Of a stretch of DNA of 64,000 nucleotides, positions 2,578-38,925 are shown piece after piece. A program made the translations under genes and the position numbers. Each line of letters opens with the position of its first letter. Position 1 is the stretch's first letter. The notes beneath the pieces were generated by a model, which saw nothing but the letters and a program-made list of their open reading frames with translations, had not been told where the DNA came from and did no database searches. The stretch is from the NCBI GenBank assembly GCA_008632985.1, contig QPGO01000098.1, forward strand, positions 235,958 to 299,957. Direction: 5' to 3'. The DNA is from Psammoneis japonica. Its lineage: Eukaryota.

Positions 2578-3399
2578 GTCGTTTCAAAGACTACACTTTA
2601 GAAGAAGTGTTGTAAAGTCGGTTTTGCTCTTGGGTTGTGTCGTCGTCAACGTGGGTGGCAAAAAAGTGAGCTGACATTGTCGCACATGTAGAATTATACA
2701 CAAATGTCATACTCCGTGTTGGCGGGAGAAATTCCAAGCCAAGTCGTGGTAGATAGGTGGCGTTACACGACACGTCACTCACCAAGCAAGAGAAGAATGA
2801 CATTCACCATGGAGAAATAAACGCCCCAACGCAAGAAAATAGAGCATGCCTTAAGCATTGGCTTGTCCCCAAATGGCAAGAATTGACCACTAGAGGTACA
2901 GGAAGCTCGACAGGGCCTGCTGAATGCCATGGTCACACACATGGAATGGCGCCTCTGTTGACGTCTGGTCCTGTTGACTTCAGCTCCGACAGCGGCAGGT
3001 CCTCAACCGCGCATCATCCTTTTTTTCTTCTACTTGCGGAGCAAGCAATATCGACAGGGATGGAAACTCGAACGGGAACAGCACCAGATCGTCGATAAAG
3101 TCCAGTTCGCTGCGTGCTTCTCTGATGGACAGCTCATCCTGAAAAGGTGTTGAAATCAGCCGATCCGAAAACCATGAAACAGGCGAGTGATCGGCTTTCG
3201 GATGAGACGTTATTCCTGCCAGCCAATGAATAGAAACAAGAAGCTCTGCCAGCAATTGTCAGAAGAAATTCTAAGCTTCAACAAGAGCTGCAACAAGAGC
3301 TGTTTCTTTTCCATGAACGGGGTTCCATGCGTCCATCCATGATGTTGCGTCGACTCTGCAGCAGAACCGCATCAGCAACAACTTCTGTTGGCATCAGTG

Positions 3400-4210
3400 A
3401 TCACAAGCCAGAAGAGAGTGAACACTCTTCTGAGAGGGATTTGGCAGAGTTTATTTGCTGGTTAGATGGTGATCAAGGTGTCGAGGTTGACGACCATGGT
3501 GTCCCGCTGTCATGGAACAAGCTTCTTCGTTCCAAATGCTGCACTGGGAACGGCATGGGATGATGTCTCGGCACACCCTCATGTCTTGTCGCCTCCCCTT
3601 ATGGAGGGCATTCAAGCCTGTGTGCGAGAATCACCAACCGAAACGCACTTTTGGCTCAAGTGCTCTCTTGCTCGTAATGGTCCCAGCCTTGTGAAATTGC
3701 TCCGATCGGTGCGCAGTTCGACAACACACGGTTCTTTTGCCATTGAGACAACCAAGGGCTGCGTGTTTGGCTCGTTTACTTCTTTTCCATGTCGACCATC
3801 CCACGGCATTTTGGAAGTAGAGAATCGTTCTTGTGGAGACTGAGAGAGTCTTGTCTGACTCGGTCTCTTTCTCCGACCCAAATGGCTTCCATTGATGGTG
3901 AGCTGGAGGTCTTTCCATGCACGCAGTCAAACAATGCCGTTCAGTGCTGTAGCCGAGGGGGCATCAGTGTAGAAAAAGGTCAACTGGAAGACAATGGCAG
4001 AACCGGTGGGCGCCATGGAGCAGTTTTGTTTGTCGACAAGAGCCTCACACGCGGCTCTGCCAGCACGTCCGAGACATTTGCCAATCCGTGTCGATAACCA
4101 ACCTGGGGAAACGCGGGGAAGAATTTAACATCCAATCTCAAAGTTTGGACTATGACACCGTGGACACAGTTTCAAACGCAGAAGAGGAGGAGCTTTCAAT
4201 GCTCTTTTGT
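3400..4210 (+). pseudogene. TLDc-domain gene remnant, copy A
   Basis: HVLSPPLMEGIQ...FWLKCSLARNGPSL...IETTKGCVFGSFTS and later TSETFANP resemble the TLDc domain; frameshifts and stops present. Confidence 0.7.
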
Positions 4211-4730
4211 CAGGAGAGAAAAGACCCCGAAAAAGCAGTGCCACATTTACTCGGAATCCTAGTCACGTTAACACCCGGACGACAACCCGGGGAACTCGCA
4301 TCTGTTAATTCAATTAAAACGTCACACTTTTCTTTTCACACGAAATGTAACGGAACAAGAAGGGGAGAGCGCATTGTTCAGTCATCCAAGTACAAGTAGA
4401 TGCCATGATAAGTGCGTCGGACAGTTCGACTCGGTGCTGCACATTCTGGAGCTAGAGAAGCATCGTAATGTGGAGCGACGTATTCATAGAAAGTAAAGTG
4501 ATCCTACAGTTCACATCTAGGTCCACACGTAAGACTCCAAGTCTCTCGTGGCTGTTTCTCTACTCGTGTGCTCTTTCCTCCCAACCAAACAGGAAACTGA
4601 TTTGTGTGCAAGCAACGTGCGCGCCACTAACTAGGAATTTCTTCTTTCTGTGGAGTGCAGGGACCTTCTGAGTTCACCGGCTCCAAGAACTCGCTCAGCC
4701 AATGCCTCACAAAGACTGACCTTGGTTGCT

Positions 4731-5810
4731 TCAAGGCTCCCACCTCGCTGCATTACAAGCAGCCTTGTGGTTCTTCCAATCCGCTGCAAAGCAATCATTG
4801 TTGCAGTGCCAAGCAATTTTGCAATGCGAACACACCATCATGTCCTCTGCTTCCTTGCCACAATGGTGACACTGAGGAACAACCTCTTGGAGTAGGTTGC
4901 ACACCCTCTCCGCCTCCTCTGAAACATCACCCACAGGACCACGCGACCCATTTCGTTGGACACCCTTCATGACAATGTCACCACCAGCGGCAAGGATAGA
5001 CAGACGGTTGTCACCATACATCGGGTCAGACAAAAATGGCATCACACCGGTCCCGTTCCATTGGATGATTGGGTGGTTCGGAAATCGCTTCAGGCTAGCG
5101 AGAATGTTGGGAATGCCTCCACAACAACGGATTTCAGATGGCAAGGATGACATTTCTTCAATGCCTTTTTTCGCAGTCATCCTTGCCATTGAATCCATCA
5201 AGGACAGCGCCAAGTTGCCAAAGACCTCCTGCTCGCGTTGCAGGCTTTGAGCCCGTGAATGCTTGAGGATGTCCACAACCATTGCGACGCCACCGGCTTC
5301 GCGCACAGCTTCGAAGTGATTGTCTTCAGACAAGTCACATGACAGTGTAAGCGAGTGAAAAACAAGGCTGCCTGCTGCTTTAGCTTCTTCATCTTGGTGC
5401 TTTTGCTGCGCGACAAGTGTGTTCATGGAAGTAATCACAATTGGGATTCCACCGCTCTCAACAATGGCCAATCTGTTGTGTTTGTTGCCGCTGCTGTTGA
5501 CATTCGCTGCAGTGTAAAGCAGACTGCAACACAGTCTCTGAATGCATGCTAGCTCGGGATTCTCACGCATGAGAGTGATGATGGTGCTCATTCCACCAGC
5601 TCGAACAAAAGCTTCGGTTCGCGCTTTGTGCTCGTCGTCGCAATCGTCGACAACAAGTTCCCCAAGTCGATGCAAAGCATTGCAGGCCCCTTTTGCGTCA
5701 TCTTCAGACACGCATTTCCCAGGCAAGGAAGCGACGAGCGCTTGAATCATTGTCTCAAGAGGCTGTGACCCTCCTTTGACTTGCACGCGTCTGCTTTTTT
5801 TCTTTCCCAT
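4731..5810 (-). CDS. Armadillo-repeat protein with C-terminal MYND zinc finger (open but mutated, possibly non-functional)
   Basis: 359-aa ORF; repeated AIVESGGIP/AVREAGGV/CCGGIP ARM-like motifs; CHHCGK...CSHCKIAWHCNNDC...DWKNHKAAC MYND finger, with the usual YC reading HC. Confidence 0.8.
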   Translation of the reverse strand: MGKKKSRRVQVKGGSQPLETMIQALVASLPGKCVSEDDAKGACNALHRLGELVVDDCDDEHKARTEAFVRAGGMSTIITLMRENPELACIQRLCCSLLYTAANVNSSGNKHNRLAIVESGGIPIVITSMNTLVAQQKHQDEEAKAAGSLVFHSLTLSCDLSEDNHFEAVREAGGVAMVVDILKHSRAQSLQREQEVFGNLALSLMDSMARMTAKKGIEEMSSLPSEIRCCGGIPNILASLKRFPNHPIIQWNGTGVMPFLSDPMYGDNRLSILAAGGDIVMKGVQRNGSRGPVGDVSEEAERVCNLLQEVVPQCHHCGKEAEDMMVCSHCKIAWHCNNDCFAADWKNHKAACNAARWEP

Positions 5811-6559
5811 CGTTGATGCTTGATGTGCATTGCGTTGTCATTGTGCGACTTGCTGCTCCGCGGTCATCATCACTTGCGGCGCACGCGCCGCTTCACCTGC
5901 CGCTTGCAGCGCGCGACGTAGCGCGCGTGCGTCCAGTTGGGCGCATGTGCGTCTTGGCGCGTTTTTCCTCGTGTCCGCACAACGGCAAGACCATGGAAGA
6001 AGCGATTTTGCGCGTGCGTGCGTGGTGCATGCCCAGCCAGAAGCAATGGAAGCAGTCACTTGCTTTGTCACCAGAGATCATTGTGCGGCAGAACACAAAC
6101 AATGCCCAATGGAATCTGTTGTCCCTGTTGGAAGATGGAATTTGGAGTGACCAATTGACTTTTGAGTGGCTGGGCTTTCAGAAGAGATTGGGTTGCATTG
6201 AAGCATCATGTTCGGGGTGCATTTTGAGGATTGTGCACAGGCACTGGGAGCAACCCCAGGAAAAATGAAGAGCAAGGCTGACTCAGTGGCCTCACAGGTC
6301 ACATTTGGAGCAAGCATTCAAGCAAAAGAAAAGACTGTCTGGCTCTGGTGTCCTGCACGCTGCCCACCACTTTCTGGTGCGCGCCCATGGAGAAACAAAA
6401 AACTCCAAAATCTCTCATTCCTCTTGCTCAATGCTTCCCCCAGGATGCACCAGCTGCATCTCAAAAGCAATCTCCATGCAAGCAACATCAACGCTGCTGC
6501 ATCATCTGGTGCAGATGATGGACAAACCTTTTCCTGTCGTGTGTCTTCACACCCTCTGA

Positions 6560-7140
6560 GTTCGATGCAGCTCCAAAAGCTGGCAAAGGTGTTGTCGCAA
6601 CATCCACACACTGCCCCCTTGGCTTCAGACTCAAAAGAGGCAGATGAAAGTGTCCCAGGCATCCTGGCATGCCTCTCAAGAGTGGGCTTCTTGGATCCTT
6701 TGAAGTCTCCGCCAGCAAGCCATGCTGCGCTCAGACATGTGAGGTTTGTCCAGTCCGACACTGCAACACATCCATTGTTGCAGCTCCAGGTGACACCACA
6801 ACAGCTGCAAATGATCATGTCAACCAGTTCCCTGTCACAATGGCAACACTGAGAAATGACCTTTTGCAGCAGATCCATCGCAAGTTGTGCCATCTTGGCA
6901 AGCTCTGGACTGCGAAATGCGCTGGTGTGCTCCAGGATGTTTTTCACGATGGTGGTGCCACTGCCAGCAGCAAGGGCTGGTGAAGGGTTGCCATCCCATT
7001 TTGTGGATGACATCGCCATCATCATCCAACTTCCAAACCATGAGATGTCATCCATGCCTGGAAAGTGCACCAAGGCAGCCAGAACATTTGGGGGGCCTCT
7101 GAAGAAATGGATTGTTTCAGCAACAAAAGATGAGAGTTCC
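6560..7140 (-). pseudogene. Third, strongly decayed ARM/MYND copy
   Basis: LLQKVISQCCHCDRELVDMIICSCCGVTWSCNNGCVAVSDWTNL matches the C-terminus of 4731-5810. Confidence 0.7.
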
Positions 7141-8044
7141 CGGCTGTTGCAACTTTCATGACAAACCATGTGGGGTGTGATTTCGCACATCAAAAAAGCA
7201 CTCCAGTGCAAAAGACACCATTTTTCTCTTCTGTGGTGAAGGCACGTGTGGCCTGTTCCAGCTCCAGGTGATGCGCAATGCATCATGCAAAAAGCCGATT
7301 TTTGGCACAGTTCAGCACATTGAACTCCTTCAAATTTGATCATTTTGAAAATTGAAAGGCAATCGCACACAAAAAAACACATGTTTTGTGTGCACGATTG
7401 CCCTTCGATTTTGGCCGGTGATGGGAATTGAACCCCAGCACATCACCTGGAGCTGGAACAGGCTGTGTGTGCTTCAAGATTCCCACAACCCATGTGAACC
7501 CACCAGCATCTGGCATGAATTTTCCAGCATTTTTCCATGCCGGGGCTTGTCATGCAATGGGATCATGCAACGGGCTGTGAGTGCTGCAAAACATGTCTTT
7601 TCATTGTGTGGCAGTTTTTTGCACAACCCAATTGCCCAAAGAGGCAGTTGCAAAAGGGACTCCTTTGCTTGCACAAATGGCTTGTTTGTTGCCATCACTG
7701 TCTTCCAGCATGCTGCTGCACAAAAAACATGGCAGCCCCAAAACTGAATCTTTGCACCCTGCTTGTGCTGGTTGTGCACAAGATGCACAGTGGCTGGCAC
7801 CCAAACCACCTGCACGAACAATGGCAGATGCCAAAGTGAGACTGCTGCTTAGTTTGGTGGCAAGATTGTGAAAACACTTCAAAACCATGAGTGATTTCAG
7901 CCCACACAAATCAGCGGCCAGCACCACTGAAGTTGCCCTCACAAACTGTGCTTGCCCTTGACCAAGCTGCACCTGCTTTTCTTTCCCATGGTTGCAATGA
8001 GTTTTGTTGCAATGTTCACACAGCTCAGACTTCAGAGTTGGGGG

Positions 8045-8365
8045 CAGTCTAAGCCCTAGGTGGGACTCCGTGTGACATTGGGCCCGTAGAATTCTACGTG
8101 CGAGCTCCGCAGTACGAGAATTTAATTAATGGATACATTTATCTTCAACATCAAATAAACGGCCAAGTTTGTGGTACAATTATGCCTCTTACCACTCGAC
8201 GTTTTTGCAAATGCACCTGCCCTACGCGATTCTTAAGTGTACCGTAAAATGACACAAAATATCGAAAAAATCACGTAGAAATCTACGTGCGCGACATACG
8301 ACGTGATTCAAAAAACTGTCGATGTCACAGTTCAGTAGTGCGAGGTCCCACCTAGACCTGGAACA
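8045..8365. mobile_element. MITE-like element, least-mutated copy
   Basis: Inverted repeat CTAGGTGGGAC (8056-8066) / GTCCCACCTAG (8345-8355); non-coding; homologous decayed copies near 26945, 38520 and 62453; exact ends and TSD uncertain. Confidence 0.75.
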
Positions 8366-9149
8366 CGTCTGGCAAGATGCTCACATGCACGCAAAGAAAT
8401 GAATCGCACCTCAAACTTCAGCTCAAGTTTCAAGCTTGTTCTCTCAAAGTCTGTGCAGAGGAGATTGTTGCAGAGGGAGAGCAAATGAGAATTGGAGGAT
8501 TGTAAAAATGACAGAGTGAGAACAACAAAATGGAAGAATGCGCTGGTCGTTGTCATGGTCGGTGATGCCCTGCTTCATGTGCTGCGTTTTCTGTTCTCAT
8601 CACTGTGCCACACAGAGTGTGTGTGTGCTCCAGCTCGCTGATGACGGCTGGCCCAGGACAATGCTTTGCCGGCAGTGCATTGTCCCTCGCATGTCGTTTC
8701 AATGATTGCACGACAAAACATCGAGAAAATGAATGCGCGAGCACTCTTTGTTCTTGGGCGGTCGTCGAACGCTGGTGGCAAAAAATGAGCCAACATTGTC
8801 GCACAAGTGGAATCACACACAAATGTCACACCAAGTGTCGGAGGGAGAAATTGGCCAAAGCGCCTCAACAGAACGACACCCAACACCCCCAACACATCAC
8901 CGCGCAAGATGTGCGACCGAAACCCATGAAACAGGCGATCGAGTGATCGGCTTTCGGATGAGGCATTGTTCCCGCTAGCCGATGAATGGAAATGAGAAGC
9001 TCGCCAGCAATTGCCAGAAGAAATTCCAAGCTTCAACAACAACTGTTTCGTTTCCATGAACGGGGCTCCATGCGCCCATCCATGATGTTGCGTCAACTCA
9101 GCAGCAGAACCGCATCAGCAAAAACTTCTGTCGGTGTCTGCAACAAAAG

Positions 9150-9790
9150 CCAGAAGAGAGTGAACACTCAACTGAGAGGGATTTGGCAGAGGTTGTTTCC
9201 TGGTCAGACGCTGATCAAGGTGTCGAGGTTGACGACCATGGTGCTCCGCTTTTATGGAACAAGCTTTTTCGTTTCAAATTCTGGAAACGGCAGTGGATGA
9301 TGTCTCGGCACACCCTCATGTCTTGCCGCCTCCACTTCTTGTGGAGGGTGTTCAAGCCTTCATGCCAGAATCACTGACCGAAACGCACTTTTGGCTCAAA
9401 TGCTCTCTTGTTCGTGATGGTCTCGGCCTGATGAGATTGCTCCGATCGGTGCGTGGTTCGACAAAACACGGTTCTTTTGCCATTGAGACAACCGAGGGCT
9501 ACGTGTTTGGCTCGTTTACTTCTTTTCCATGATGGCGACTGTCCAATGGACGGTGTTTTGGAAGTGGAGAATCATTTTTGTGGAGACTGAGAAAATCCCG
9601 TCTAACTGGTCTCTTTCGCCAACCCAAATGGCTGCCATGGAGGGTGAGCTGGAGCAGGTCTTTCCATGCGCGCAGTCAAACAATGCCGTTCAGTGCTGTA
9701 GCCGAGATGACATCAATCTCAAAGTTTGCACCATGACACCATGGACACAGTTTCAAAGGCAGAAAGAGGAGGAGCTTTCAATGCAACGGA
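9150..9790 (+). pseudogene. TLDc-domain gene remnant, copy B
   Basis: HVLPPPLL...FWLKCSLVRDGLGL...IETTEGYVFGSFTSFP; disrupted frame. Confidence 0.7.
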
Positions 9791-10174
9791 ACAAGGAGGG
9801 GAGAGCGCACAATTCAGCCATCCAAGGACAAGCAGATGCCACAACAAGTGTGTCGGACATTTCGTCTCGGTGCCACATGTTCTGGAGCTAGAGAAGCATC
9901 GTGACATGGAGCGACGTATTCATGGAAAGTAAAGTGATCCTGCAGTTCACATCTGGGCATGCACGTAAGACTCCAAGTCTCTCGTGGCTGTTCTCTGCTC
10001 ATGCTCCTGCCAAACCGGAAGCGGATTTGTGCACAAGCAACGTGCGCGCCGCTGCACCAGGAATTTCTCCTTTCATGGAGTGCAGGGACCTTCTGAGTTC
10101 ACCGGCTCCAAGCCAGTGAAATGATTCTCGAGACCCTGCCCCCCAATTCACATTGAAGTCACTCAGTCAATGCC

Positions 10175-11272
10175 TCACAAAGACCAACCTTGGTTGCTTC
10201 GAGGCCTCCACCTCGCCGCATTACAAGCAGCCTTGTGGTTCGTCCAATCCGCTGCAATGCAACCGTCATTGCAGTGCCAAGCAATGTTGCAACGCGCACA
10301 CACCATCATGTCCTCGGATTCCCTCCCACAATGACGGCACTGAGGAACAACCTCTTGCAGCAGGCAGCACACCATCGCCGCCTCCTCTGAAACATTGCCG
10401 ATGGGATTGCACGACCCATTTCCTTGGACACCCTTCATGACAATGTCACCACCAGTGGCAAGGACAGATGGACGGTTGTCATCATACACCGGGCAAGACA
10501 AAAGTGGCATCATCCTGGTCCCGGTCCATTGGATGATTGGGTGGTTCGGAAATCACTTCAGGCTGTCGAGAATGTTTGGAATGCCTCCACAACAAAGGAT
10601 TTCAGATGACAAGGATGACATTTCTTCAATGCCTTTTTCCAAAGCCATCCTTGCCATTGACTCCATCAAGAACAGCGCCCATTTGCAAAGGTCCTCATGA
10701 CGGCTTTGCAGGCTTGGAGCCCGTGAATGCTTGAGGACATCCACAACCATTGCGACGCCACCGGCTTCGCGCACAGCTTCGAAGTGACCATCTTCAGACA
10801 AGCCATCCAATGGGCCAAGTGAGAAATAAAAGCAGCCTGCCGCGATTTTTTTGTCATCTTGGTGCTTTTTCAGTGCGACAAGTGTGTTCACGGAAGCAAC
10901 CATGATTGGGATTCCACCGCTCTCAACAATGGCCAATTTGTGTTTGTTGCCGCTGCTGTTGACATTCGCCACAGTGTCAAGCAGAATGCAACACAGACTC
11001 TGAATGTACGCCAGCTCGTGATTCTCATGCATGGGAGCAATGATGGTGCTTGTTCCGCCAGCTCGAACAAAGGCTTCGGTGCAGCCACGCACTTTGTGCA
11101 CGTCGTCGCACTTGACAAGCATGCCAAGACGCTGCAAAGCATCGAAGGCCCCGTTTGCATCATTTTCAGATGCGCATTTCCCAGGCAAGGAAGCGACGAG
11201 AGCTTGAATCGTCTCAATGAGAGGCTGTGACCCTCCTTTGACTCGCATGCGTCGGCTTTTCTTTCCCATCAT
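10175..11272 (-). pseudogene. ARM/MYND paralog, interrupted
   Basis: ORFs 10553-11272 and 10175-10513 are in frame and separated by TGA where copy A has CGA (Arg); highly similar to 4731-5810. Confidence 0.85.
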
Positions 11273-12487
11273 GGATGCTTGCTTGATGAATGCGTTGTCA
11301 TTGTGCGACTGCTGACATTGCCGTGCGGTGCTGCCATTGCCGCACGCACAACATACGTGACGGACGGACGTGCGCCCAGTTGGGCGTCTGTCTTGGAGCG
11401 TCTTTCCTCAAGTCTTAAGACCCGTCGTGCTCGTGGTGGAGGGGTGCAATTCGGGGTGTAATTTTGGGGTCCCCTCAAAAAAAAATTACAGCCAACAAAT
11501 GGGCTGCCAGAGGCATGTGTTTTTTTTTCCTGTGAAAAATTCTGGGAGCCTGCAATTTTCCGCACGAAAACAGACTCAACTCATCATCATCCATGACGGC
11601 AGAAACATCCGAGCATCGAACAACAATGACAACCAACAATCAACAACGAACTTCAGCCAATGAGAGATGTAAAAAATTGTTGCTGGGGAGCTGTTGTGAT
11701 GTGCTCACGAAGGAAAGAACGGCAAAAAATGATGAGATGGAGTCAACGGACAACAAAATGATGACAACTTCATGTCTTTTCTGAAGAAAAACATGTCATG
11801 TGGTGGCTGAAACCTCAGCTGTGGACACAACAATTGCACACATCATCAACCACATCATTGCAAATCAACTGGACTTGTCAGAACAGCAATTTGACATGCG
11901 CGAGGTCACAGCGGAGCCGCCGAACGCCACTGTGTTTTGTTGCAGTCATTTGAATCTTCAACCTCCTCGCGTGCAGATGAGTTGATTAAATTGGAGATGT
12001 GGAGTTGTTCCTGCTCAGTCATCATCAATTTTTCAGGAGCACATGTTCAATGCAGATGTCAATTCTTGCAGAATTGCAGTTGTCAAATTTCAGACTCTCG
12101 CAAGGACCAAGGCGAGCGCACGGCTGCACGAAGTTGTCAGTCCCGTCTGCTCGTGACTCAGTGCATTTCTGTGGCAAAAATTGTGCAGGAATTCGAAGAT
12201 GACAAAAACGGCCAGATGATTTCCACCAACTGCAATGTGAGCTGCACCTGATGTACATTCTTTGTTCGTCAACACTTGAGTCAACTGTTTCAGGCGTCAC
12301 ATGCAGCTGCTTTGATGAGCTGGAATTTCTCCGAACGAACGACGAATCGTGCGGAGCAACAATGAACAAAGCAACAAAACAACAAACCCAGCATGTCATT
12401 TCACTGTTAGACCTGCACAAGCCCTCAGCACATGGCCCTACTCTCAACGGAGATGTTGTCTCCCAGCTGATTCGAACATGCACTTTG

Positions 12488-12596
12488 ACGCGGTCGTCGA
12501 ACGTTGGCGGCAAAAATGAGCTAACATTGTCGTACATGTAGAATTATACACAAATGTCATACGAAGTGTCGGAGGGAGAAATTGGCCAAAGCGTGG
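12488..12596. repeat. Third copy of a ~110-bp non-coding segment that begins duplication copies A and B
   Basis: gtcgtcgaacg..gagctaacattgtcgtacatgtagaattatacacaaatgtcatac..gggagaaatt; also at ~2640-2735 and ~8758-8862. Confidence 0.85.
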
Positions 12597-24589: not shown

Positions 24590-25585
24590 AGGGCACACCC
24601 CCATGCCCCTTGGCAGACTTGCCAAAGGATGCAACCCACAGACACATTGTGGAGCAGCGTTCATTTGGGACAGCCCGGCTCCCTCTTGGTTTCCTCTTCT
24701 TGTTGCCAGCTGTTTGTGCCCAAAGGGCACATGTGCGTGCTCAAATTCCTTGAGCAGCACATTGGTCATTTTACAGAACAACTCCAAGAGAAGGATCAAC
24801 TCAAGAAATGCATGCGCGCCTGATGGAGGGTGACAGAGAGAGGGAAAGACTCGGCTGTTTTGCACTGCTCCTCCTCAACAAGTGCAGCAGCAGCACACAC
24901 ACATGATTGCACTGCTGACAACACTCTGCCAGATGCCAACAGCATCTGCCTTGGTGCAGCACATGATGATGCAAGCAAAAAAAGCATTTGCGCATTTTTT
25001 GGATCCACAGGCACAACAAAGCTGCTCTCCAGTCACTCCACATTGGGCAACTGGGGCGGGGGAGAAAGTTGTGCTGAGGGCTTGCCTGTTGTTGCTGGAG
25101 ACCCCCTGTGGCATGGCTCACTCATTGCATTCAAACCTTCTCAAACATCTCATGCCAGTGTGCATTGAAACCAAGGAACAGTTGTCAGGTTGGCTTCATT
25201 GCAAAGATTGTGCATGCAATCACGTTTCTGGCTGCCGCAAGAATCAAGCATGTGGTTCCCACCACCAACAGCCCAACAGCCTCAACAAAAGATGTCAATG
25301 GTGAGAGGCCCGGCCAGTTGTGTGGCAGGTCATTGCTGGAATGCCCCCACCCAACCTGGTGCTGCTGCCCTTTTTGCTGGCCCACCTCTAAAATTTGGAC
25401 GTGGCTCACATGTGATGCAAAGAAGTGCTTCCACTGCACAGTCCACTCTGCCAAATCTGAAAGAATGAGAAGTGTTTTGTTCAAAATGGCATCCAGAGAC
25501 AGCAGCTGCAACTCCTCTGTTGATGGCAGGTCAAGTGCTGTGTCTCACTCCTGCTGCTTTCTCGACCAATGCAATGCAGTTGACG
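24590..25585. other. TpA/CpG-depleted island (decayed repeat or pseudogene)
   Basis: Only about two TA seen in 1 kb; TG/CA-rich; flanks have normal composition. Confidence 0.8.
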
Positions 25586-26329: not shown

Positions 26330-26944
26330 GGTGGGCGATATGGGAAACGAATGGGTGAGTCTTCCAGATGCAAAAGCGACGTAATCTATTTCCTTTTGCC
26401 TGCGAGATCTGCGTTTACTGAGCATGTTTTGCGTTCGTTGTTCGTGTCGTGTATGAATTTCGAATTTTTCCCTCGAAGTCCGTTGAGAGCGGGATTGCAC
26501 TGTAGCCCTACGTGTATGTATGGGGAAGCGAGCGGCAGAAGCTGGTATGTGTACGATTCTACTTGGGCACTCAGTAAATGACGTCATTAATCTCGTCGGC
26601 CCATCCTCGGGTCAGTGTGGGAGATGACGGTCGGAGTACGGTACGAGACACCGGTACATAGAGAGGCGGCGTGATTGCACCACCAGCGCAGTGACCTTCA
26701 AGTTTCCCGCGTGGCAGAACAAACTGTCATTTTCTTGCCTGGATGACGACTTGCTCTCAAATTGGTGCATTGATGACATGTGTTGAGAAGCACTCTCTGT
26801 CACACATGTTGGGGCTGCACAACAAGTTGCGACAGCCTGCTGCAAAGGGCTGTGCTGATCAAGAGACAAGGTCTGTGATCAAAAAGATTTGCACCCAAAA
26901 GCAGCCAACATCCAGGGCTTGTGGTCCACAGCTGACTGACATGC

Positions 26945-27300
26945 TCTCCAGCCCACCAGGTTGTGGAACTTTGTGTGACATGATGGGACCACACACAGAA
27001 ATGAGTGCACAATGTTTGTCTTGCTTCAACATCCAAGTGAACAACTGAGTTTGCAGCACAGCTGTGCACATCTTCCTGCTCACAATTTCTAAAAGTTCCG
27101 ACCTGCAGTCACTGCACAACTCTGCAGCAGCATGAACATTTCCAAAAAAGCCCCTTGTCAAGAACAGAATCTAGAAAATGATGCAAAATGGCACCAAAGT
27201 CACACAGAAATGCACATGCGTGACATGTGGCACATGACAAAAAAACCTCAATGTTGCAGTCCAGCAGCACAAGGCGTCACCCACCCAGGCCCGCATCAGC
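26945..27300 (+). mobile_element. Decayed copy of the 8045-8365 MITE-like family
   Basis: ctccagcccaccaggttgtggaactttgtgtgacat ... caaagtcacacagaaatgcacatgcgtgacatgtgg..aaaaaacctcaatgttgcag. Confidence 0.65.
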
Positions 27301-29304
27301 CCATGCATTTTGACAACTGCACTTTTCCTTCCTTGCCTGCACACAGAGGGACATCTGCCAGCTCACTTGTGAGATAACCCAGTGCTTTGTGCTTCCAGCG
27401 TGCCCCCATCTTTCTCCTTTCTTGCTCCTCTGTGACTGGAGGCAAAAAAACTTGCACTCATCAACTTGTTTGCTCCTCTTTCTCAAACTGAGGGGCAGCT
27501 TTCACACTCAAGACAAAGGTGTCATCATTTCTGCGCTGGCAGTGCAGGTGAAAATTGTTTGGGAGAACATGGCAACCTTCCAGTCAACTTCACAGCAGGG
27601 CCTGCCATTTTCTCCAGTGCTCCATTTCAAGGCTGCTCTTGCTGGAAGCTCTGGATTTAAACCTGTTTCTAGTTTGGCAAATTTGTCTTCTGCTGAAAGT
27701 CATGGAGAAGCACCAGGATGAGAAGATGCAGCAGCCAAGCAGCTGGTTGCTGCTGGTCCTCTTGCCCTCTAGATTCAAAACTTTGCCTTTTTTTTGGCAA
27801 AGCTCAAAATGAAAACTCCCTTGCCATGGTGCAAAGCCTGCTCTTACACACAGACACCCCACATTCAAAACCTCTGTCTGGAGTGTGTGGCTCCACCAAA
27901 TGAAGTCAAGGGATCCACTGTTCCTTGCCAAAGCCCTCACAAATGAAAAGTTTTTCTTGTTGGGGTGCCTCAGCAGACAAAACATGCTTGAAATTGTGCC
28001 AGATGGCTGCTTTGCCAGGGACAAGAATCAAAGCTCTCTGCCACACCAGGTGACACAACCAGCACACTCATGTTGATGGCACTGTTTGGGATGGGCTTGA
28101 AATGCAACCTTTGGTGTCTCTCAGGTTTCAGGTCCTGCAAGCTGTGCATGTGAGTGTGTGTGTGCCCCCTCCCCCCACCCCACCTCACCCACACCCATGC
28201 ACCATGTGCACTTCAGAAAGAAGATGTCTGGCAAGCTCACAGAGAAAGACATGTTGGAAATGGCTGCTCTCATGGGAAATGCACAACTTCTGCAACAACA
28301 CACATGTTCTGTGCACTGAGCACAGCACATGGCAACAAGATGGTGTGCTGCTGTTCTGCTGCACTTCAATGGGTGCAAACTTTGTCACACCTTGTGCTCT
28401 GTCATCTGAGCCCACCAGGGCACATGAGGAATGGGCTGAAAAGAAATGTTTGGCAGAGTTGACAGGAGAGCACACCCAAACAAGGAAAAAGACAGCCCAC
28501 CACAGCCACAGTGGGAAGGGGGGGGGGGGGGGCTATGCAAAATGAAAACCACCCCATGATGCAAGGCAGTTTGTGGATCAACCTTGCTTGCAATGGGAAA
28601 GTGCTTGGGAGAAGCTGGTGATGCCAACCTTGACAAAGATGAAATCAAAAAAGATTCAACCCTGCAGTGGACTTTGATGTTGGGCCGAGTGGACAACAGC
28701 AAGCACAGGGGACAACAATGCTGGCTTGGGCACCACCAACAGAGACAGCCCCATGCACACTTTGAGCTGCAAGGCAGATGACCTTGATCACAGTGTGCTT
28801 GCATTCTGCGCTCTCTTTGTTCATGCATGAAACAAGGTGCAGGGTGAAAGATGCCTTGTCATTTTTGGATTTTGGAGTCATTCTACAAAGCACTCATGTG
28901 TGTGCTGTGTTTTTCAATGCCTTGGCATGGCCAGACTTGATTGCAGCTGTTTTTCTTCTGGCCTTGTTGCCACACATCTGTCTCAAGTCTCTCCAGCTGC
29001 TCTTTGTTGGATGACAAGATCCAGCCCAAACACAAAAGCTTGGGTGCGCATGTGCTGTTGGACACAAGCATGTGTGGTGTCTTCAAAAAAAATTGCTGTC
29101 GCATCCAATTGAAGCTGTTTGGTGTGAATGAAGCAGACCAGAAATCACGTGCTGCTCAGCACAACATTTTTGTGGCAGTCACCAAAAAAGCCACACAGAG
29201 ACATCAGCACCAGTGCCTTTTTCTCCCTCTGGGGCAAGAGTCTGCTCACAGATGCCACACCTCTGACCTCCAGATGTGCACTGTGCTTGGGGGGGGGGGG
29301 GGGG

Positions 29305-29460
29305 GCAACTGCAAGGGTGGCTGAAAAAGGAGCCATTTTGGCAGAAGTGGGAGCAGCAGCCACAACAACAGCACAAAAGTTGCAACTGCAAGGGTGGCTG
29401 AAAAAGGAGCCATTTTGGCAGAAGTGGGAGCAGCAGCCACAACAGCAGCACAAAAGTTGC
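29305..29460 (+). repeat. Tandem duplication, 2 x 77 bp, directly after a G17 run
   Basis: gcaactgcaagggtggctgaaaaaggagccattttggcagaagtgggagcagcagccacaac(a/g)cagcacaaaagtt occurs twice. Confidence 0.9.
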
Positions 29461-29660
29461 ACCAAGCATGGGAGATGGCTGCACACCAGAGAGATTGGCA
29501 GCATCTGCAAAATGTTTTTTGCATGCAGCACAAAGAGCAATGCAAATGCATTGTCACATGTGTTGTGTCATGTGTCAAAAATTTTGCACCATGTTTTGTT
29601 CCTGACAAAGTGTGGCACATCAAGAGATTCTCAATGCATGGCTGCAAAACTGTGTTTGTG

Positions 29661-29662
29661 AC

Positions 29663-29693
<31 letters not shown>
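29661..29693 (+). repeat. (CAA)n microsatellite, about 10 units
   Basis: Directly visible. Confidence 0.9.
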
Positions 29694-29694
<1 letters not shown>

Positions 29695-32600
29695 CTTTTG
29701 TTGAGCTCAAAACCACCAAGTTTGAGCCAATTCTTTTGCAAGAACAAGTTGCTCTGAACACCAGCAGAAGTTTCCTTGCTGAGGATTCACAGCCCTCCAC
29801 AAAAGCTGGTTTTTCCTGTCTTGGCTTTTGCTGGTTCTGTGCACTTTGGTGCAAAGTTGTGTCATGGTGGTTTGCAGCCCCAACTCAAGAAGGCTTTCAT
29901 TTGTTTTGGTTCCACCAGTGCTCCCTTTGAAATTTTTTCTGGTGTTTGACAATGGAGCCCCAGCCCAAAATGGTTGTCTGCTGCATTTGCCTCCAGGAGC
30001 TTTCTAAACTTGCATTTGACAATGAGCCCTCCTCCCCTTCTGTCTTGCCCATGCAACCTTGCTGACATCCTTTTCTTTCCCAGAGAGGGGGCTCCTCTCT
30101 GTTGTGCTGGGAACCAATTCCATCACCTCCTCAGGACAACACAATTGTGGTGCAGAGCAGGCTCAGCACCTCAGCTGGGAGCCCTTGGTGACAGCTCACT
30201 TTGTGTTGCAGCCATTCTTTCAATGATGATTTTTCTCACGAGGGCTCCTCAGTTGACAGCACAGTCAGGTGATGCCTTTGATGATGTGCCCACAACTCAT
30301 GGCATTGACCAGGTCAGGCATGTTCAAGAAAACTTTGAACATGATGATTTTGCTTTGAGATCAACTTCAGACAGCTCCTTTGAGTCCACTGACCCCCCAA
30401 CAACACTGACCTTGGCTCTGTTGCATGTGTTCCTTAAGAAAACCAGCGCCCATGCTCCAGAATGAACTCCTTGACAAAGAGCTCATCCATCCTGTGGAAG
30501 GGGATCTTGCTGCCATGATGAGAAAGAGTTGCCCTCCAGGACATCCTGTCATTCTGCCACAATGCATCCCAGAGCAACTGTGGCTTGCAAAGATTCCATC
30601 TTGTGCAACAATCATGAGCTGAGTGAAGAAGAAACATCTTGTTCCCTGTGCAGGTCCACCTCCTTGCCACAGCACATTGCTTTTGCTGATCCTGAATTCC
30701 CTCCAGTGCACGTGTGCTGATTTTCTTTGTTCCACAATGCCCCTCATCTTTCCCAACACAATCTGCAGCTTTGGAAGGATGCCATGTGGCTTTGCAAACA
30801 GCAGTGCACTGAGAGGAAGATCTTGTCAGAAATTGACCCCAGCAACCGTGGGGCCTGGGTTGTGTTTGTGAGCCCCTGAGCAGCAGCAGTTGGTGGAAAA
30901 AAGCTTGCCCAGAGCTGCAAAAGGACCTGGAAGAACTTTGTGATGACCATTCACCAGGCCTTCACTTTGTTGCTCACATTGTTGCTTTTGATCGCTCAAT
31001 GTTGTTGTGACCAAATGGGCAGACCAGCTGCCCAGCTGGTTTTTGCATGTTTTGAAACATTGTCAATCATCTCTGCTGCCTTGCCAAAAGCCAGTTTTTT
31101 GTGGGCATGGGTCCCACCATGGTCCAAGTCTTCAAAGGAAAGGGCTGAGGACAGAAGGTGTGCGCTGTGCAAAGTGGACACTGCTCTGAATGTTGAGCCA
31201 GAGCATGGCAAATTTGTCGCTCATTTTAAATTGCCACCTCCTGTTGGCAGCAAGGACAAAATGGCCATCATCCATCTTGACAAATCCGTTGCCTGGGTTC
31301 ATGACATTTTGCCACACTGGAGAGCCCTTGAGACATTCTTCAAGACAAAACAGAAAGTCAAAGAATGACCCAGGGGACAAGGCAAGTTTGTCTTCCAAAG
31401 GAAGTGCCAGCTGGGCAATGTGCTTGTCAGCACATGTTGCAGCAGCAACATTGTTGACACACACATGTTTGCCACACAAATGTTGCAACCCATGCTTGTC
31501 AGCACAAGACTTGTGATGGGGGTTTTGCTTTGAGTCGTTGGATCCAACACTTTTGTCGTCATCCAAAATGTCCATTTTTCTCAGTCTGATGCAGCGTGTT
31601 TGTCAGCAACATTGTGCTCATTGTTGGCCTCCTCCAGGCAGGGTTTTCAATTGCAAGGAAGTGGCCAGCCCAAGACAAGGAAGAAGACAAGGAAAAGTCT
31701 TTGCACCAAGATCTAAAGCAGAATTCTGCACAGATTGTGACATCAGTTGAGGCTCTGTGCACTGTTTTTGGAGTGCGACTGTCAGCATCTGAGCCTGCCA
31801 AAACACTGTCACATGGAACACATGTTGTCTCAGCAGCCATTGTTGACAATGGACAATGCAGGCAGCCAGAGAAGCTAAGAAGCTCCTTGTTGACAAGCGC
31901 ATCTGTCAAATGTCTTGTCTCTCAGCTTGAGCTTGTTGTGGACTCAGTCAGAGAGAACACGCTGGAACAAACCCCAGAAGAACATTTTGTTGTCCTCAAG
32001 AATGTGGTCCCCAGTGGTGTCTGCCTTGTCATTTGAATGCAGTGTGTTAAAGTGTTTCAGCAGCTGCGGGCTTTGGACCAGTTGACTGCCAAATGAAAAG
32101 ATCATGTTGGCTGCAGCTGCACAGCAAGCCATGACAATTAATTTTTCCTCATCTGGCTTCCTCATCTTTCCTTGTCTGAGCAAATTCAGAGTCAAATGAC
32201 GTGTTCCCTGCAACAAAAAACACTGCCTCTGGGTTCTTGGTGCACTCATCAGCACTTTTGGTGGGTGAACTTGTGGGCTGCTTGTCAATCTCAGGCAACT
32301 TTTGACATTGCCTGCGGCAAGCTTTGTGGGGAACAAACATTGTGCGGCCCTGCTTCCAGGTTGGCAATGGTGTTTGCTTGACAGTGTTTTGTGCTGTCCA
32401 GGGTGGACTTTTCTTCTTGGTGCCTTTGTCTTTGGGGGTGCCATGACAGATTTCTTTGAATGTTGAGAGAAAAAGTTGCAGAGGCAATGCAGGGCTTCAC
32501 AACCTGTTGTGCAAGTCATTGTGAGCTGTGAGGCTCAGTGGCTCAGGTGACCAGGGTTCATGAGCCACTTGTTGGAGAGATCTTTGATGCTTGGCCCTCT

Positions 32601-35600
32601 GTCATCTTGAGCTCTGCTTCCAAATTGCTTTGTGCATGAGCACCATCTGACCACAGCTGTTGGAAACATCTGCACTGCTGCCGTTGCAGCCAAGAGACCC
32701 ACAAAGTTTGTGCCCTCTTTGTCCCCATGATCTGCCAGCATTGGTGCACAATGACAGAGAAGTGAGTTCTTGTTGTTTGTGTCAGGGGGGCAGATGGGCC
32801 TCACTCATGCTGTTGCAAAAGCACCGTGCTGGCAATCAGAACAGAAACTCAAATCTGCTGCAAAATTGCCTCTTTCCACTGACAAAACCTCAAATGTGAG
32901 ACAATGCTGTTGAGGCCATGACCCCCTCCATTTTTGCTTGCTTTGTTGCACATTTTGGAAACATCAGGAAAAATTCAACTTTGTCGCAACACATCATTTT
33001 CACACAACTGCACAAGAGCTGTGGGGAAAATGCACCCTTCCCAGTTGGGAGTGGGAAAAATGCCAACACCTTGTCCACAAGTTCTGCTCTCACCAGCATG
33101 CAACCAACACGACAACAGCCAAAATGCCGCTCATTCTCAAAAACTGAGTGCAGGAGCTGGCAAGTTTTGTTGCAAGTTTGTGGACTTTGACAACAGCAAT
33201 GAGCTCACAAAGAAAGTTGCCAGCCCCACTGTCAGCTTTTGTTCAGGTTCAGGCATGTTGCACTGTCAGTTTGTGCTTCAGTGTCTTTCATCACATGCAA
33301 CACAGTGTTGCAGTGGATCAATTGCATTTTTCTTCATCAATGTTGGCTGTAAAGAGAACTCAAGACAGTCATGATGGCAAAGTCTGGTGTTCAGCAAAAG
33401 CACTCTGTTGACAAGGAAGAGTCAGTCACTCACCAAGTTTGATCCAGACACCAGAAGAAGAGTGTCCAAATGACTGCCACAATGGCAGAGCAAAAAATGC
33501 AGACTGCACAGCCAGTGGCTTTTTCCTTTCCCAGTTTCCAAAGGCTCCTTGAGGCACCATCCAGTGCTGGAGAGATGGGATGGAAGAAATTAAATCTGTG
33601 ATTGGCTTTCTTGGGTGTGCTGACAGATCTGATGACATGGGCTGCAGGTTTGAAGAGACAAAGCAACAAATTTTGAAGCCAATGAAGGACTCAAAGCAAG
33701 ACACCATGGCCCATTTTGATGTGGAGTTGGGCTGGTTGGCGGCAGGCTCAACTTTGCCAAAGCTCTTGATGAAAGCACAAGGCAAGTCTGAGTGTGACAA
33801 AGTTGGTTGCCTTTTTGCTCATCTGCATGTTTGCATTGCATCGCTTGTGCAGGAGCCAATGGACAAATTGGGTTGGACAAGAAATGAAACAAAGAGCTCA
33901 TGCCTGTTTTCAAACACAGCTGAAACAAAGATGTGCGCAACTGCCAAAACCTGCATTGACAGCATTGCAGGAGAACTCTGTTTGGACGAGCTTCAGGAAA
34001 GAAAGGAAGGAGTCAAAATTCCAAAAACATGTGCACAAAAATGAAGTTTTCTCAAGCAAAGAACTCTCCTTTGACAGATCCTTGGTGGCCAAACCAGGTT
34101 GATGCTGTTGCAGACAAGGAGCTGGGTCACTTTTCAAAGGTCCTGAAAAGCTCGACTTTTGGGGTTGACATCAAAAATCCATTTTGTCAAGCACTGCAGA
34201 AAACAACAAGAAAGAGCACACTGATTGCATGAAAAGAGCTGCCGAGATGACCTTGCACTGGGAAGACAATGTGTCAAGTTAAAGTGATGACACAAGGCAT
34301 TTGTGTTTCTACACAAGCAAGCAGGCTGGAGAAAAGCAGACTGTCCAAGCAACATTGCATTCCTTGCTCTGAGTTCTGGCACTTGTTGGCAACAAAAACC
34401 AGATGAGAGGACATTCATGGAGAATGTGGACAAGAAGACAATCATCAAGAACATGAGTGTGCTTGCATGTGTGCTGCCAACACAAAGTGCTCCATTGATT
34501 TTGAGATTGCATTTCTGTGCCGCATGCAAAGAAAGTGCTCCCAATGGAGGCCTCAATGACAGGTGCCAAAGCAAAGACTGTTTGCCAAAAAATCAGAGTG
34601 TGTGGAAGACATGCATGACAAGAACATCAAGCAGCAGATTGGGCATGGGGCAAAGCACATGCTTCTTGCCTTCAAGCTTGGGAACACAGGCATTGATGGG
34701 TGCACCATGGGCATGCTCATCACCCCTGTCTGTGTGAGGGCATTGAAACTCCAGCTTGCAAACATGGGACCTGTCAATGTGACCCTGGAGATGAGTCACA
34801 CAAAGATGTTTCCATTGGTCAGCCACGCAGCTTTCAAGAAAATTGCAACAAAAGAGAAGTTCAGAGCATTTCTCAAGAAAAAGCCACTCCCAGGCATCTG
34901 GATGTGAAGAGCCCAAGGTGCCATTTGAGCTGAAGCAACTTTGGAATTTGTTCTTGTGTGCATCAGAAAGTTCAGGTTTGTCTTTTTTCTGTCAAAGAGA
35001 GAGCTCAAGCTGCATCATTCCAAGTGGCCACATGCACTTCACCTCTGACTTTCATTGAAATGTTGTCACAATTGGTGCTGGGTCTCATGGCACAGTGTGC
35101 AAGGTCTCCAGCAATTCTTGCAAGTGCATCAAAGTGTCCCAGGCTGGCAAAATCCAACACATCAAGTGCAAAGTCCAAGCCCTCCATGCCTTGACTGCAT
35201 GTGATCACATCCCTTGTCCACCATCTTGGTTGCTCAAGGGGGGGCTCTGCTGGCTGCAAATGCCCATGCTGTGTTTTTCATGTCAAAAAAGGAACACAGT
35301 GACTGTGGAAGGACACCATGGCAGGATCACACAACTCTCACAATGCAAAGGTTTTCCACCTGCAAGTGCACATTGAGAACATTGTGTTTGACCAGAGGAA
35401 AGAGATCTTTGTTCTCATTGACCAGACATGTGCTTCATGCAATGAAAGAGCATCAGACTTCTCTGCTGTGGGTCTCTCCCCTTTGTTGCTCATGCTCAAG
35501 TGCACAGCATGGGGGGCACAAAAAGCTGGTCACCCAAAAGGGAATGTGATCTGGCTTGCCTTGGCTTCAGCATTGTGGCTTTCATGAGTGAAAGGGATGT

Positions 35601-36999
35601 TCCATTGCATGGCTTGAACTGAAGGATCAGCAACAAAGCTGACAAGTGCTGGACCATGCAACAGTCTTCTGCAAAGAACAGAAGCTGTTGTGCAGTGCTG
35701 TCTTTTGTTCCTCTGACAGTCTGCTGCAAAACTTAAATCATGAGCACTTGTTTAAGAAGAGCTGATTGTGACATCCACTTGTGTGTTGTGTCCTTGGAAG
35801 GGACCCTGGAAATGATTTGTTGCTGCAGCCACGTGCCCTCCCACCTTTCAGACCTTGGATCCAAGCATCATGTGAGAGCAATGGACAACAGATTGCAAGC
35901 CTCCCTGGAGGCCAAAATTGAAAAAAAAATTGATCAAAACATGAAAAAGCTTGACTCCAAGGCAAATTTCCTCATGGCCCCTTTTCCATTGCTCACCATG
36001 TCATGTTGTTGGCAAAATGCAATGATTCTGCACCAAACACAGCATCTGCACTCTACAAGGAATGACTGGATGCAGCAGTTTTATGAGTTCCCACTTTGTG
36101 CTCTTGCTGTTGTGCATTGAAGCATGATGCGTGCTCCATTTGACACCAAGGTGATGGTGGTTCCATGGTGTTTTGCAGTGCAATTAGCCTGTTGAAGCTC
36201 AGCAGCAAACCCAGGACCCTCTGTTGGCTGTGGGTTGCAAGGTCCCTGCAAAGGACACTTGTTGTTGGTTGGAGCTCAGCAGCTGGCAACCCTGCCAAGA
36301 TGGAAGTGCCCAAGTGACAGACACACGGCTCAGTGGCTTGACATTCTTTTTCAAACAGCACACTGGTGTGTGCCCAAGCTGAGGGCTTTGTTTTTCCCAC
36401 AACACCTGGGTTGCCTTTTGCTCCTTGTTTGGTCATTTGAACTTGGTCTGTTGATTCTGCAGTGCTTGGCTTCTTGCACATCTTGGAGAAGAACAGCAGG
36501 CAAAGTGGCTGCTCTTGGTGTTTTTTTTGCAATGGCAGTGCTTTCTTTGGCACACACTGGCTGGCACAACCAATGATGTGTGAGTGTTGGAACATCCAGA
36601 AGGTGTGTTGAAGAGGAGGCACTGTGGCTCTTGACATGGCAGATTCAGTGATTCTTTGTGATTGAGATTTTGTCATCAACAATCTCTCTCACCTTTCAGT
36701 TTGTCTTGCCCTGTGCAGTTCGTCATTGTTTGATTCTTTGCATGACTTTGTGTTTGGCATCACAGGGTGCCTGCCACATTGCAAGTTTGAAATTTTGCAC
36801 ATCAACAACTTCCAGGCAACCTGCAGCCACAACAAGAAACCAACATGTGCAGCAAGTGGCAAAGAAAGCCTTGCAGGATTCCCCCCTTTGGTGATGTTGA
36901 GTTGCCGATTCATCATTCACTGCAAAGAGTCACCAGCACTGCACTCAGTGCCCACTGACATTGACCTCCACACAGTTGTTCAACATTGGAACTCTGCAC

Positions 37000-38260: not shown

Positions 38261-38519
38261 TTTTAAAGAGTTTTGCACCATGATCAAAGGCCCAGATGCT
38301 GGTGGCAAAAATCACTTTCTGCACTTTGAGCTCCCAGCCTGTTCTTGGTGGGTGGTGCTTGTTCATTGAAGATTTTGTTCTGCACTTTGAACACACAGAA
38401 GGCAAGGACAGAGTGCTTGCCAGCTGTCGCTCTTGTCGCTGCCCCAAAATGGACTCACTTCCAAAGGGGAGGGGACAGCAAATTCTGAAAAGGTGGCTGC
38501 CACTCCCAAGTTGGCAAGT

Positions 38520-38925
38520 GATGCATTCCAGCCCCAGGTGGAACTCTGTGTGATGCCAGCCCACAGAGTTCTGTGTGTGGGAGCTCCACGCAGCTTGTGC
38601 TCAGGCTGGTTGACACATTTGTCTTTGACAATTAAAAAAAAAACAACCAGGCATGCAGCATGACATTGTTTGTGCCTCTTCACAGTCCAAGTTTTTGAAA
38701 GCACCTGCCCTTCCATGCCTTTTGCAGATGTTGAAGAATGATGCATTGTGCTGCAACAAAATGTCAGAAATTGTTGAACAGATCACCCAATGATTGCACT
38801 GCAAAACAATGCAAGATTCCACCAAAGTCATGCAGAAATGTGCATGTGTGACATGTGGCACACATGACAAAAAACATCAATGTCACAGCAGCAGTGCAAG
38901 GTCCCAGTTAGATCTGGAGCACATG
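38520..38925 (+). mobile_element. Decayed copy of the 8045-8365 MITE-like family
   Basis: Alignable end to end: agccccaggtggaactctgtgtga .. gacacatttgtctt .. tgcctctt .. gcacctgccc .. gcagtgcaaggtcccagttagatctggagcac. Confidence 0.8.

Follow-up and report, generated by a model that had tools for sequence, protein, structure and literature searches.

Domains with near-complete loss of TA in the genome of Psammoneis japonica point to a targeted mutational process

Introduction

Repeated DNA in the genome of Psammoneis japonica raises the question of how copies of one segment can come to differ mainly at TA dinucleotides. The copies lie in a stretch of 64,000 nt (assembly GCA_008632985.1, contig QPGO01000098.1, positions 235,958 to 299,957 of the forward strand), hereafter the window, whose first letter is position 1 in all coordinates below. 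An initial annotation, made by reading the letters of this stretch, had described three copies (A, B, and C) of a ~110-bp segment and interpreted them as a base-by-base record of how TA, on either strand, becomes CA or TG within a domain. We studied the extent of this conversion, its direction, its sequence context, and the DNA that it affects. The results lead us to propose, with a probability of roughly 0.8, that the window contains nuclear domains, from 2 to more than 14 kb long, where TA has undergone A:T-to-G:C transitions close to saturation, and that a targeted enzymatic process produced them.

Results

Copies of a duplicated segment

The strings quoted for the three copies were located at 2668, 8787, and 12518, within segments at 2642..2733 (copy A), 8758..8862 (copy B), and 12490..12593 (copy C), all on the plus strand. 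The segment is present three times as described. It is not free-standing, being the left end, ~105 nt long, of a 3.2-kb duplication: a self-comparison of the window aligned 2623-5855 (unit A) with 8747-11314 (unit B) in blocks 80-92% identical, and copy C is the left end alone. Copy A lies in TA-normal DNA, 65 nt from an open reading frame (ORF) at 1621-2577(-) that matches Pfam Y_phosphatase3. Copy B lies in the interior of a TA-low domain, and the solitary copy C at the right edge of that domain. The window yielded 11 repeat pairs in this self-comparison, and the 27-41 kb domain described below contributes few of them.

The alignment of B with C (105 vs 104 nt) has 10 substitutions and one gap. 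All six TA of C read CA (five) or TG (one) in B, which contains no TA, and only four other substitutions separate the copies. The chance that at least six of 10 random substitutions between B and C would be TA to CA/TG is very small (P about 6e-7). The CG of tgtCGc is retained in copies A, B, and C. In copy A, four of the six TA of C are kept and the remaining sites read TG and CA. The first variable site reads TG in A, CA in B, and TA in C, in agreement with the earlier reading, and one site is tcgCAcat in A and B and tcgTAcat in C alone.

The bodies of the two units repeat this pattern at a larger scale. That of unit A (3165..5855, plus strand) is partly converted, with 32 TA at aligned pyrimidine-purine (YR) steps, and that of unit B (8917..11314, plus strand) is more converted, with 13. 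Seven pairs of TA facing CA or TG had been listed between 4390-4640 and 9828-10065, and all are found in the A/B alignment. Unit A contains an ORF at 4734-5837(-) with Armadillo repeats and an MYND finger (Pfam zf-MYND 32.3 bits, Arm 25.1 bits). Its counterpart in unit B, at 10556-11407(-), is shorter, and its MYND match is gone.

Domains depleted of TA

We mapped TA in 250-nt bins, used rho as the ratio of observed to expected dinucleotide frequencies, and compared three classes of DNA: genic, TA-low, and TA+CG-low. The window as a whole contains 1,492 TA, with rho(TA) of 0.35, rho(CA) of 1.43, and rho(TG) of 1.44. The bin map shows that the depletion is restricted to certain regions and that TA is normal outside them: genic DNA has 25-64 TA per kb, and the converted stretches, at 5.8-8.0, 8.5-12.25, 24.8-25.4, 26.7-41.2, and 57.25-64 kb, have 0-9. 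In the TA-poor domains rho(TA) is 0.00-0.05, and CA and TG occur at about twice expectation. The ratio TpA/ApT is 0.00-0.07 in the kilobases at 28-41 kb, within the largest domain, vs 0.47-0.93 in genic kilobases, and (CpA+TpG)/(ApC+GpT) is about 2.0 vs 0.95-1.44. The longest TA-free runs measure 1,931, 1,424, 1,294, 1,227, and 1,211 nt. If TA occurred at its genic frequency of 0.0411, the first of these would have a probability of about 3e-35. The converted DNA is complex sequence and not made of simple repeats.

The bins contain 0-4 TA within domains and about 10 outside, and the edges are a few hundred nucleotides wide. Copies A and C lie in bins with at least 9 TA or at a boundary, and copy B in a bin with a single TA. 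The gradual fading of the domain edges thus accounts for the TA kept in A and C and lost from the interior copy B.

The domains differ in their content of CG. The one between units A and B (5751..8044), which includes the 1,931-nt TA-free run at 5919-7850, has lowered CG (5.75-8 kb), and the next one (8500..12250, with 0-4 TA per 250 nt vs about 10 in genic DNA) retains it over 8.5-12.25 kb. A short stretch at 24772..25389 is TA-free and CG-low and is separated by a TA-normal island from the 14.5-kb domain (26660..41171), where rho(TA) is 0.00-0.10, rho(CG) is 0.02-0.25 (CG nearly absent over 26.7-41 kb), and no protein family is recognisable. The last domain (57250..64000) begins inside a transposase gene and reaches the end of the window. 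It retains CG up to ~61750 (57.5-61.5 kb), beyond which CG is nearly absent (61.75-64 kb). A Pfam search of 103 ORFs from 24400-41300 gave no match at the cut-off, and one of 130 stop-to-stop ORFs of the converted domains gave none at curated cut-offs and six weak matches below them.

Some features within or next to these domains are reported for completeness. The island at ~25400-26660 has normal TA and CG density, is surrounded by converted DNA, and contains an ORF at 26021-26611(-) of 197 aa that has five Tyr and matches no Pfam model. The island may represent a later insertion or a gene exempt from conversion. Runs of 15-17 G occur inside TA-free DNA at 28515-28533 and 29281-29300, followed by an 80-nt direct repeat (29305-29384 / 29382-29461) that is 98.75% identical.

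Direction of change

The copies of the segment can be polarised with A as the outgroup: B and C have three indels in common against A, as well as the stretch ...aagtgtcggaggg...ggccaaagcg, a block of non-YR states. Parsimony over the three copies gives four sites with TA in both A and C and CA/TG in B, and one site with TG, CA, and TA in A, B, and C that is cheapest to derive from TA.

The composition of the domains provides a second line of evidence. Transitions within YR steps cannot alter the sum TA+CG+CA+TG, and this sum is 0.2417 in genic, 0.2448 in TA-low, and 0.2424 in TA+CG-low DNA. The parts of the sum change: TA+CG goes from 0.0966 to 0.0122 and CA+TG from 0.1451 to 0.2301, a loss of 0.084 vs a gain of 0.085. 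The frequency of TA per nucleotide is 0.0026-0.0059 in the domains vs 0.0411 in genic DNA.

The comparison of units A and B, both of which lie below genic TA density, gives the same direction. At 24 sites unit A has TA where unit B has CA or TG, and the reverse is seen at five. There are also 31 doublets with CA in one copy and TG in the other, as expected where the same TA (or CG) disappeared from the two copies through changes on opposite strands. Transitions between the units affect 134 of 1010 sites within YR steps vs 75 of 1176 elsewhere (P=5e-8).

A fourth line comes from a protein outgroup, the relatives of the transposase described in the next section. These four lines (parsimony, mass balance, the A/B comparison, and the protein outgroup) agree and support TA as the ancestral state. 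The change of TA to CA/TG on either strand inside the domains, as initially annotated, is supported by the parsimony, the mass balance, the Tyr columns of the protein, and the bin map. The contrary outcome named beforehand, with CA/TG ancestral and TA derived, is not what the comparison of ancestral states gave.

A transposase pseudogene

The last domain begins inside a full-length pseudogene of a large transposase (56937..61531, plus strand), whose relatives carry a C-terminal DDE_Tnp_4 domain. A tblastn search with 150 relatives marked a single full-length copy (56862-61531). Its frame is interrupted by stops, at 58860, 60033, and 61170, and shifts near 61016-61139. The long frame at 56865-61169 had one relative in a word-indexed search (P0121, 57% identical) and 525 at E<=0.001 in an exhaustive one. 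Full-length relatives have 1,450-1,750 aa with DDE_Tnp_4 at the C-terminus; among 11 long members scanned (1,446-1,747 aa), this domain reaches the Pfam cut-off in five and falls just under it in one. Overlapping open frames of 250-390 aa occupy both strands at 58271-61169, because TAA and TAG have been lost.

The amino acids of the pseudogene bear the mark of the conversion. Tyr is encoded by TAY, His by CAY, and Cys by TGY (Y, pyrimidine; R, purine), and Tyr makes up 0.5% of the pseudogene vs 2.3-4.5% of most relatives. We defined conserved-Tyr columns as those with Tyr in at least 60% of at least eight of 23 relatives, which gave 12 columns; in the pseudogene, five of these read His, three Cys, two Tyr, and two another residue. 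Control columns are largely kept (Phe 10/12, Trp 6/7, His 6/6, Cys 13/17), and no conserved His or Cys column reads Tyr. At the conserved-Tyr columns 22 of the 23 relatives have 0-1 His/Cys. The stop at 58860 is aligned to Arg in P0121, and two of 25 conserved-Arg columns are stops, as CGA>TGA would give.

The remaining relative, P0153 (950 aa), has His/Cys at three of seven such columns, with 0.7% Tyr and 4.1% His overall; judging by this composition, it may be a copy hit by the same hypermutation in another public genome or metagenome. In the family (P0121-P0270), full-length members show, by eye, an N-terminal motif resembling PIN/XPG nucleases (MGIKG...DASW...CDG..RHHSKR...FQADS), and their first 1,300 residues match no Pfam model. 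Searches for DNA of transposase relatives found none in metagenome_contigs (two scans) or, for P0121, in viral_contigs (one scan), and the relatives were compared as proteins.

Flanking context, strand symmetry, and CpG loss

The survival of TA in the fully converted domains depends on its flanks. For all survival values and flank rates, we took genic DNA to represent the composition that the domains had originally. On this scale, survival is 0.000 for RTAY, 0.025 for RTAR/YTAY, 0.214 for YTAR, and 0.51 for TTAA. A two-strand additive model, in which the 3' neighbour of the A on each strand determines how fast that A is hit, gave fitted rates of 2.94 for T, 2.55 for C, 0.98 for G, and 0.70 for A. 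The products formed in the CG-keeping domains point the same way: RTAR yielded RCAR at +9.4 per kb vs RTGR at +3.1, and this threefold difference indicates that the pair that changes is the one beside the pyrimidine flank. The target thus extends beyond TA itself to 5'-TAY-3' (equivalent to RTA for the T of the other strand), with TAG converted more slowly and TTAA nearly refractory.

Both strands are hit alike, as indicated by counts of CA vs TG per 500 nt that are binomial inside the domains (sd, or standard deviation, of z 1.05), and we found no strand-coordinated blocks of CA vs TG there. AA+TT is 0.161 in genic, 0.156 in TA-low, and 0.170 in TA+CG-low DNA; this absence of depletion argues against a general drift from AT to GC. 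The GC content of the three classes is 0.473, 0.505, and 0.482.

The loss of CpG (C>T) is an additional component that can be separated from that of TA. Survival of CpG ranges from 0.04 in TCGA to 0.60 in GCGC, and the fitted loss rates by 5' neighbour are 1.47 for T, 1.09 for C, 1.00 for A, and 0.29 for G, which gives the order TCG > CCG ~ ACG >> GCG. The CG-keeping domains (8.5-12.25 and 57.5-61.5 kb) have TA at 14% and CG at 86% of the genic level, and a hand calculation makes TA loss about 12-fold faster than CpG loss. TA is lost first and CpG later, and the most fully converted domains are presumably the oldest.

Independent sequencing data and a TA-rich element

We compared the window with a DNA sequencing run (X1, same sample), in which 81% of the sampled words of 8000-17999 are present. 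Contigs built from X1 (word depth 44-60) cover 5952-7276, 7324-8081, and 8343-9241 with 3, 0, and 2 differences, and they continue across the domain edge at 12073-14512. Depth in X1 over the 5.8-8.0 kb domain is that of a single copy. These contigs exclude an assembly artefact. All 21 listed differences between the window and X1 contigs over 3600-11028 are transitions within YR steps. We did not count them as polymorphism: the contigs were placed at 93% likeness, several differences coincide with A/B paralogue differences (e.g., 4397 and 4487), and they may reflect cross-laid paralogues.

A TA-rich inverted-repeat element of 320 nt (8045..8365) is intact inside TA-free DNA. It carries an inverted pair of 19 nt between perfect 11-nt terminal inverted repeats (8056-8066 / 8345-8355). 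The X1 word depth is 106,992 in the bin that includes it (8005-8671) vs about 50 around it, and the element looks like a very high-copy sequence akin to a miniature inverted-repeat transposable element. Either it is younger than the conversion or it is not a target. Its presence in a TA-free domain shows that sequencing did not lose TA as such.

Flanking genes

The CDC20 gene of the window has 3,775 relatives. Among the best 120, 16 are named; every one of these is from a stramenopile, with an identity of 37-48%, and at least 11 are from diatoms. No Bigelowiella protein is present among these 120. Contigs of a second run, X2 (listed as 'DNA?'), skip GT..AG stretches of 91-98 nt at 13281-13380, 13546-13644, and 13874-13973, and also 17670-17762 (CT..AC, minus strand), so that X2 resembles an RNA library and shows introns of the flanking genes. 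None of the listed runs that contain the stretch is recorded as RNA. X2 cover is absent over 2002-12673 except for a trace at 8005-8671; this lack of cover is no evidence of silence, and we did not use it. Two blocks (151 and 86 nt) of TA-normal DNA within 15351-15696 and 16328-16562 are 84% identical, adjoin ORFs at 14991-15809(+) and 16798-17688(-), and look like a local duplication. Rfam and tRNA scans of the window gave no matches.

Discussion

Two targets of the conversion can be recognised from their sequences: an inactivated DDE transposon, and a tandemly duplicated gene with ARM and MYND domains. From the footprint we infer the following chemistry, link to silencing, and role. In marked chromatin (silenced and probably methylated), adenine would be deaminated to inosine by a DNA deaminase of the TadA/ADAT2 type; inosine would pair with C at replication, and TA would become TG, or CA when the other strand is attacked. 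The process would be a genome defence analogous to fungal repeat-induced point mutation (RIP), with the opposite chemistry. We regard adenine deamination as the specific chemistry at about even odds. A broader proposal is that marked chromatin recruits one TadA/ADAT2-like deaminase with two targets, A in TAY and C in TCG, by which all YR steps of a targeted domain are driven to CA/TG. The result would be a RIP-like defence of stramenopiles that, with Bigelowiella, might extend to the whole group of stramenopiles, alveolates, and Rhizaria; this we hold to be tentative and rather unlikely.

Several observations weigh against the proposed process or loosen its details. TA is its own complement, which makes an attack on A indistinguishable in sequence from one on T. 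The only ADAT2 tested on DNA, judging from PMC10354150, prefers GAA and not TA for adenine. A foreign origin is demonstrated for the transposon only and not for the 14.5-kb domain. X1 possibly comes from the same sample as the assembly, and it excludes an error of the assembler and not a peculiarity of the culture. One of the six variable sites of the segment (CA in A and B, TA in C) requires either a gain of TA in C or parallel losses. The 3-kb comparison of A and B has no outgroup: no homologue of the ORF at 4734-5837(-) was found at E<=0.001 among proteins of 202-644 aa, which leaves the body of the units without a protein outgroup. The flank rates depend on genic DNA as a proxy for the ancestral composition, and the product bias at the 33 direct A/B sites is too sparse to decide, with 13 events that fit the TAY rule and nine that do not (hand count).

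The ambiguity of the attacked base gives rise to one alternative. An enzyme of the TET/JBP type might make 5-hydroxymethyluracil in 5'-RTA-3', which would mispair with G or be misrepaired, giving T>C, and the DNA of dinoflagellates does contain hydroxymethyluracil preferentially at TpA. As TA is palindromic, this route fits the conversion to CA/TG, the flank rule (TAY = RTA), and the strand symmetry equally well. We think it improbable all the same, because this analysis gave no sign of such a modification or enzyme, and the sole experimental precedent for the signature (the preprint discussed below) favours adenine deamination, by way of a candidate gene only. Adenines could also have been edited in RNA, with an ADAR-like enzyme acting on double-stranded RNA of repeats before reverse transcription into DNA. 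Hits on both strands would suit a double-stranded substrate. The target, however, is a DDE DNA transposon with its flanking DNA and no retroelement, and the inclusion of the non-repeated spacer, the gradual edges, and a start inside the transposase gene suggest action in place. The 3' preference, T ~ C >> G > A, is also unlike that of ADAR, which favours a 3' G. The 5' U favoured by ADAR (10.64898/2026.01.13.699255, main text) agrees with the 5' T required here, and even so this route appears very unlikely.

The remaining alternatives deny that TA was lost, or that the loss was targeted. If CA/TG were ancestral and C>T changes at CpA had made the TA of A and C, as in RIP, the one site with TA in C alone would be most simply explained as a gain. 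This reversal is scarcely credible: RIP enriches TA, whereas the domains, at 0.0026-0.0059 vs 0.0411, are depleted and copy A is itself below the genic level, four sites have TA in both C and the outgroup A, and Tyr columns conserved over 23 relatives read His/Cys in the window. That modified bases were misread, or that faulty polishing wrote TA and CG as CA/TG, deserves mention, since modified bases are classically found at both of the missing dinucleotides. It is highly improbable, given that the independently built X1 k-mer contigs return the same TA-free sequence with 0-3 differences each, that the Tyr to His/Cys changes come with the stops and frame change typical of a true pseudogene, and that the TA-rich element is intact amid TA-free DNA. 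Targeting would be unnecessary if the region were recombining or foreign and had undergone GC-biased gene conversion or selection against TA and CG, and gene conversion does favour the AT-to-GC direction of the TA changes. We give such explanations practically no weight, because AA+TT is unchanged and GC content barely shifted, the change is confined to YR steps and follows a tetranucleotide rule, and CG is lost concurrently (GC-to-AT) in the most converted domains.

The closest known case to the targeted conversion of TA is that of Bigelowiella natans (Mettrop et al., 10.64898/2026.01.13.699255). According to the main text of this preprint, 231 of 302 new mutations in mutation-accumulation lines fell in two integrated viral regions, and 230 of these 231 were A>G or T>C, all 230 at TpA, with ADAT2 named as a candidate; in some lines the new mutations arise at a rate of about 1e-7 to 1e-6 per site per generation. 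It also reports 124 clusters poor in TpA and rich in CpA+TpG, and an enrichment of DDE endonuclease domains in TpA-poor genes. The two cases share regional A>G/T>C transitions of TpA to TpG or CpA that leave TpA-poor, CpA+TpG-rich clusters, as well as the association with DDE elements, enriched there among TpA-poor genes and hit here in a transposon. They differ in host, a chlorarachniophyte (Rhizaria) there and a stramenopile here, and in degree: rho(TpA) of the hypermutable region of nucleocytoplasmic large DNA virus origin is given as 0.45, and the domains described here have 0.00-0.05. The TAY rule and the CpG loss seen here have no counterpart in the preprint's main text, which lacks the terms trinucleotide, flanking, TTAA, and CpG. 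Conversely, activity was measured in lines in Bigelowiella and is known here from its footprint alone.

Other mutational systems match the signature in part. In fungal RIP, context-specific transitions also ruin duplicated or mobile DNA, spill into neighbouring sequence, and leave their mark on dinucleotide frequencies, and a tandem duplicate is hit here as well. RIP changes C>T at CpA and enriches TpA, whereas here TpA is erased and CpA/TpG doubled, and a dependence on duplication is not evident here, the 5.8-8.0 kb domain being at single-copy depth in X1. The decay of CpG through 5-methylcytosine leaves the same end products, TG/CA, as the CG loss of the most converted domains (rho(CG) 0.02-0.25), but it cannot remove TA, which here was lost earlier and more completely than CG. 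APOBEC3 enzymes likewise carry out context-specific, deaminase-driven hypermutation against mobile DNA; they convert C>U on single-stranded cDNA, with strand-asymmetric G>A changes that spare TA, unlike the conversion of both strands of a DNA transposon observed here. The A-to-I chemistry of TadA/ADAT2 and ADAR would yield A>G, and in the tRNA substrate of TadA/ADAT2 a U precedes the edited A34. The amphioxus ADAT2 (BjADAT2) is reported to deaminate DNA at TCG and GAA (PMC10354150): its cytosine context is the one preferred for CpG loss here, and its adenine context, GAA, differs from TA.

A full-text literature search found this signature described only for Bigelowiella natans, and none in diatoms or other stramenopiles. 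New relative to the preprint's main text are the second, distant host lineage, the saturation, the flank rule, and the order of TA before CpG. TA-free DNA lacks TAA and TAG, and gene finders will therefore call long false ORFs in it and over-call genes. The flank rule, with TAY fast and TTAA nearly immune, provides a distinguishing mark for assessing candidate deaminases and a simple scan statistic for locating such domains in other genomes. If a single deaminase were responsible, it would erase Tyr codons, TAA/TAG stops, and TATA-like signals, leaving long frames that only TGA closes. The signature in a stramenopile points to a wider, possibly old, system of genome defence in ecologically dominant algae.

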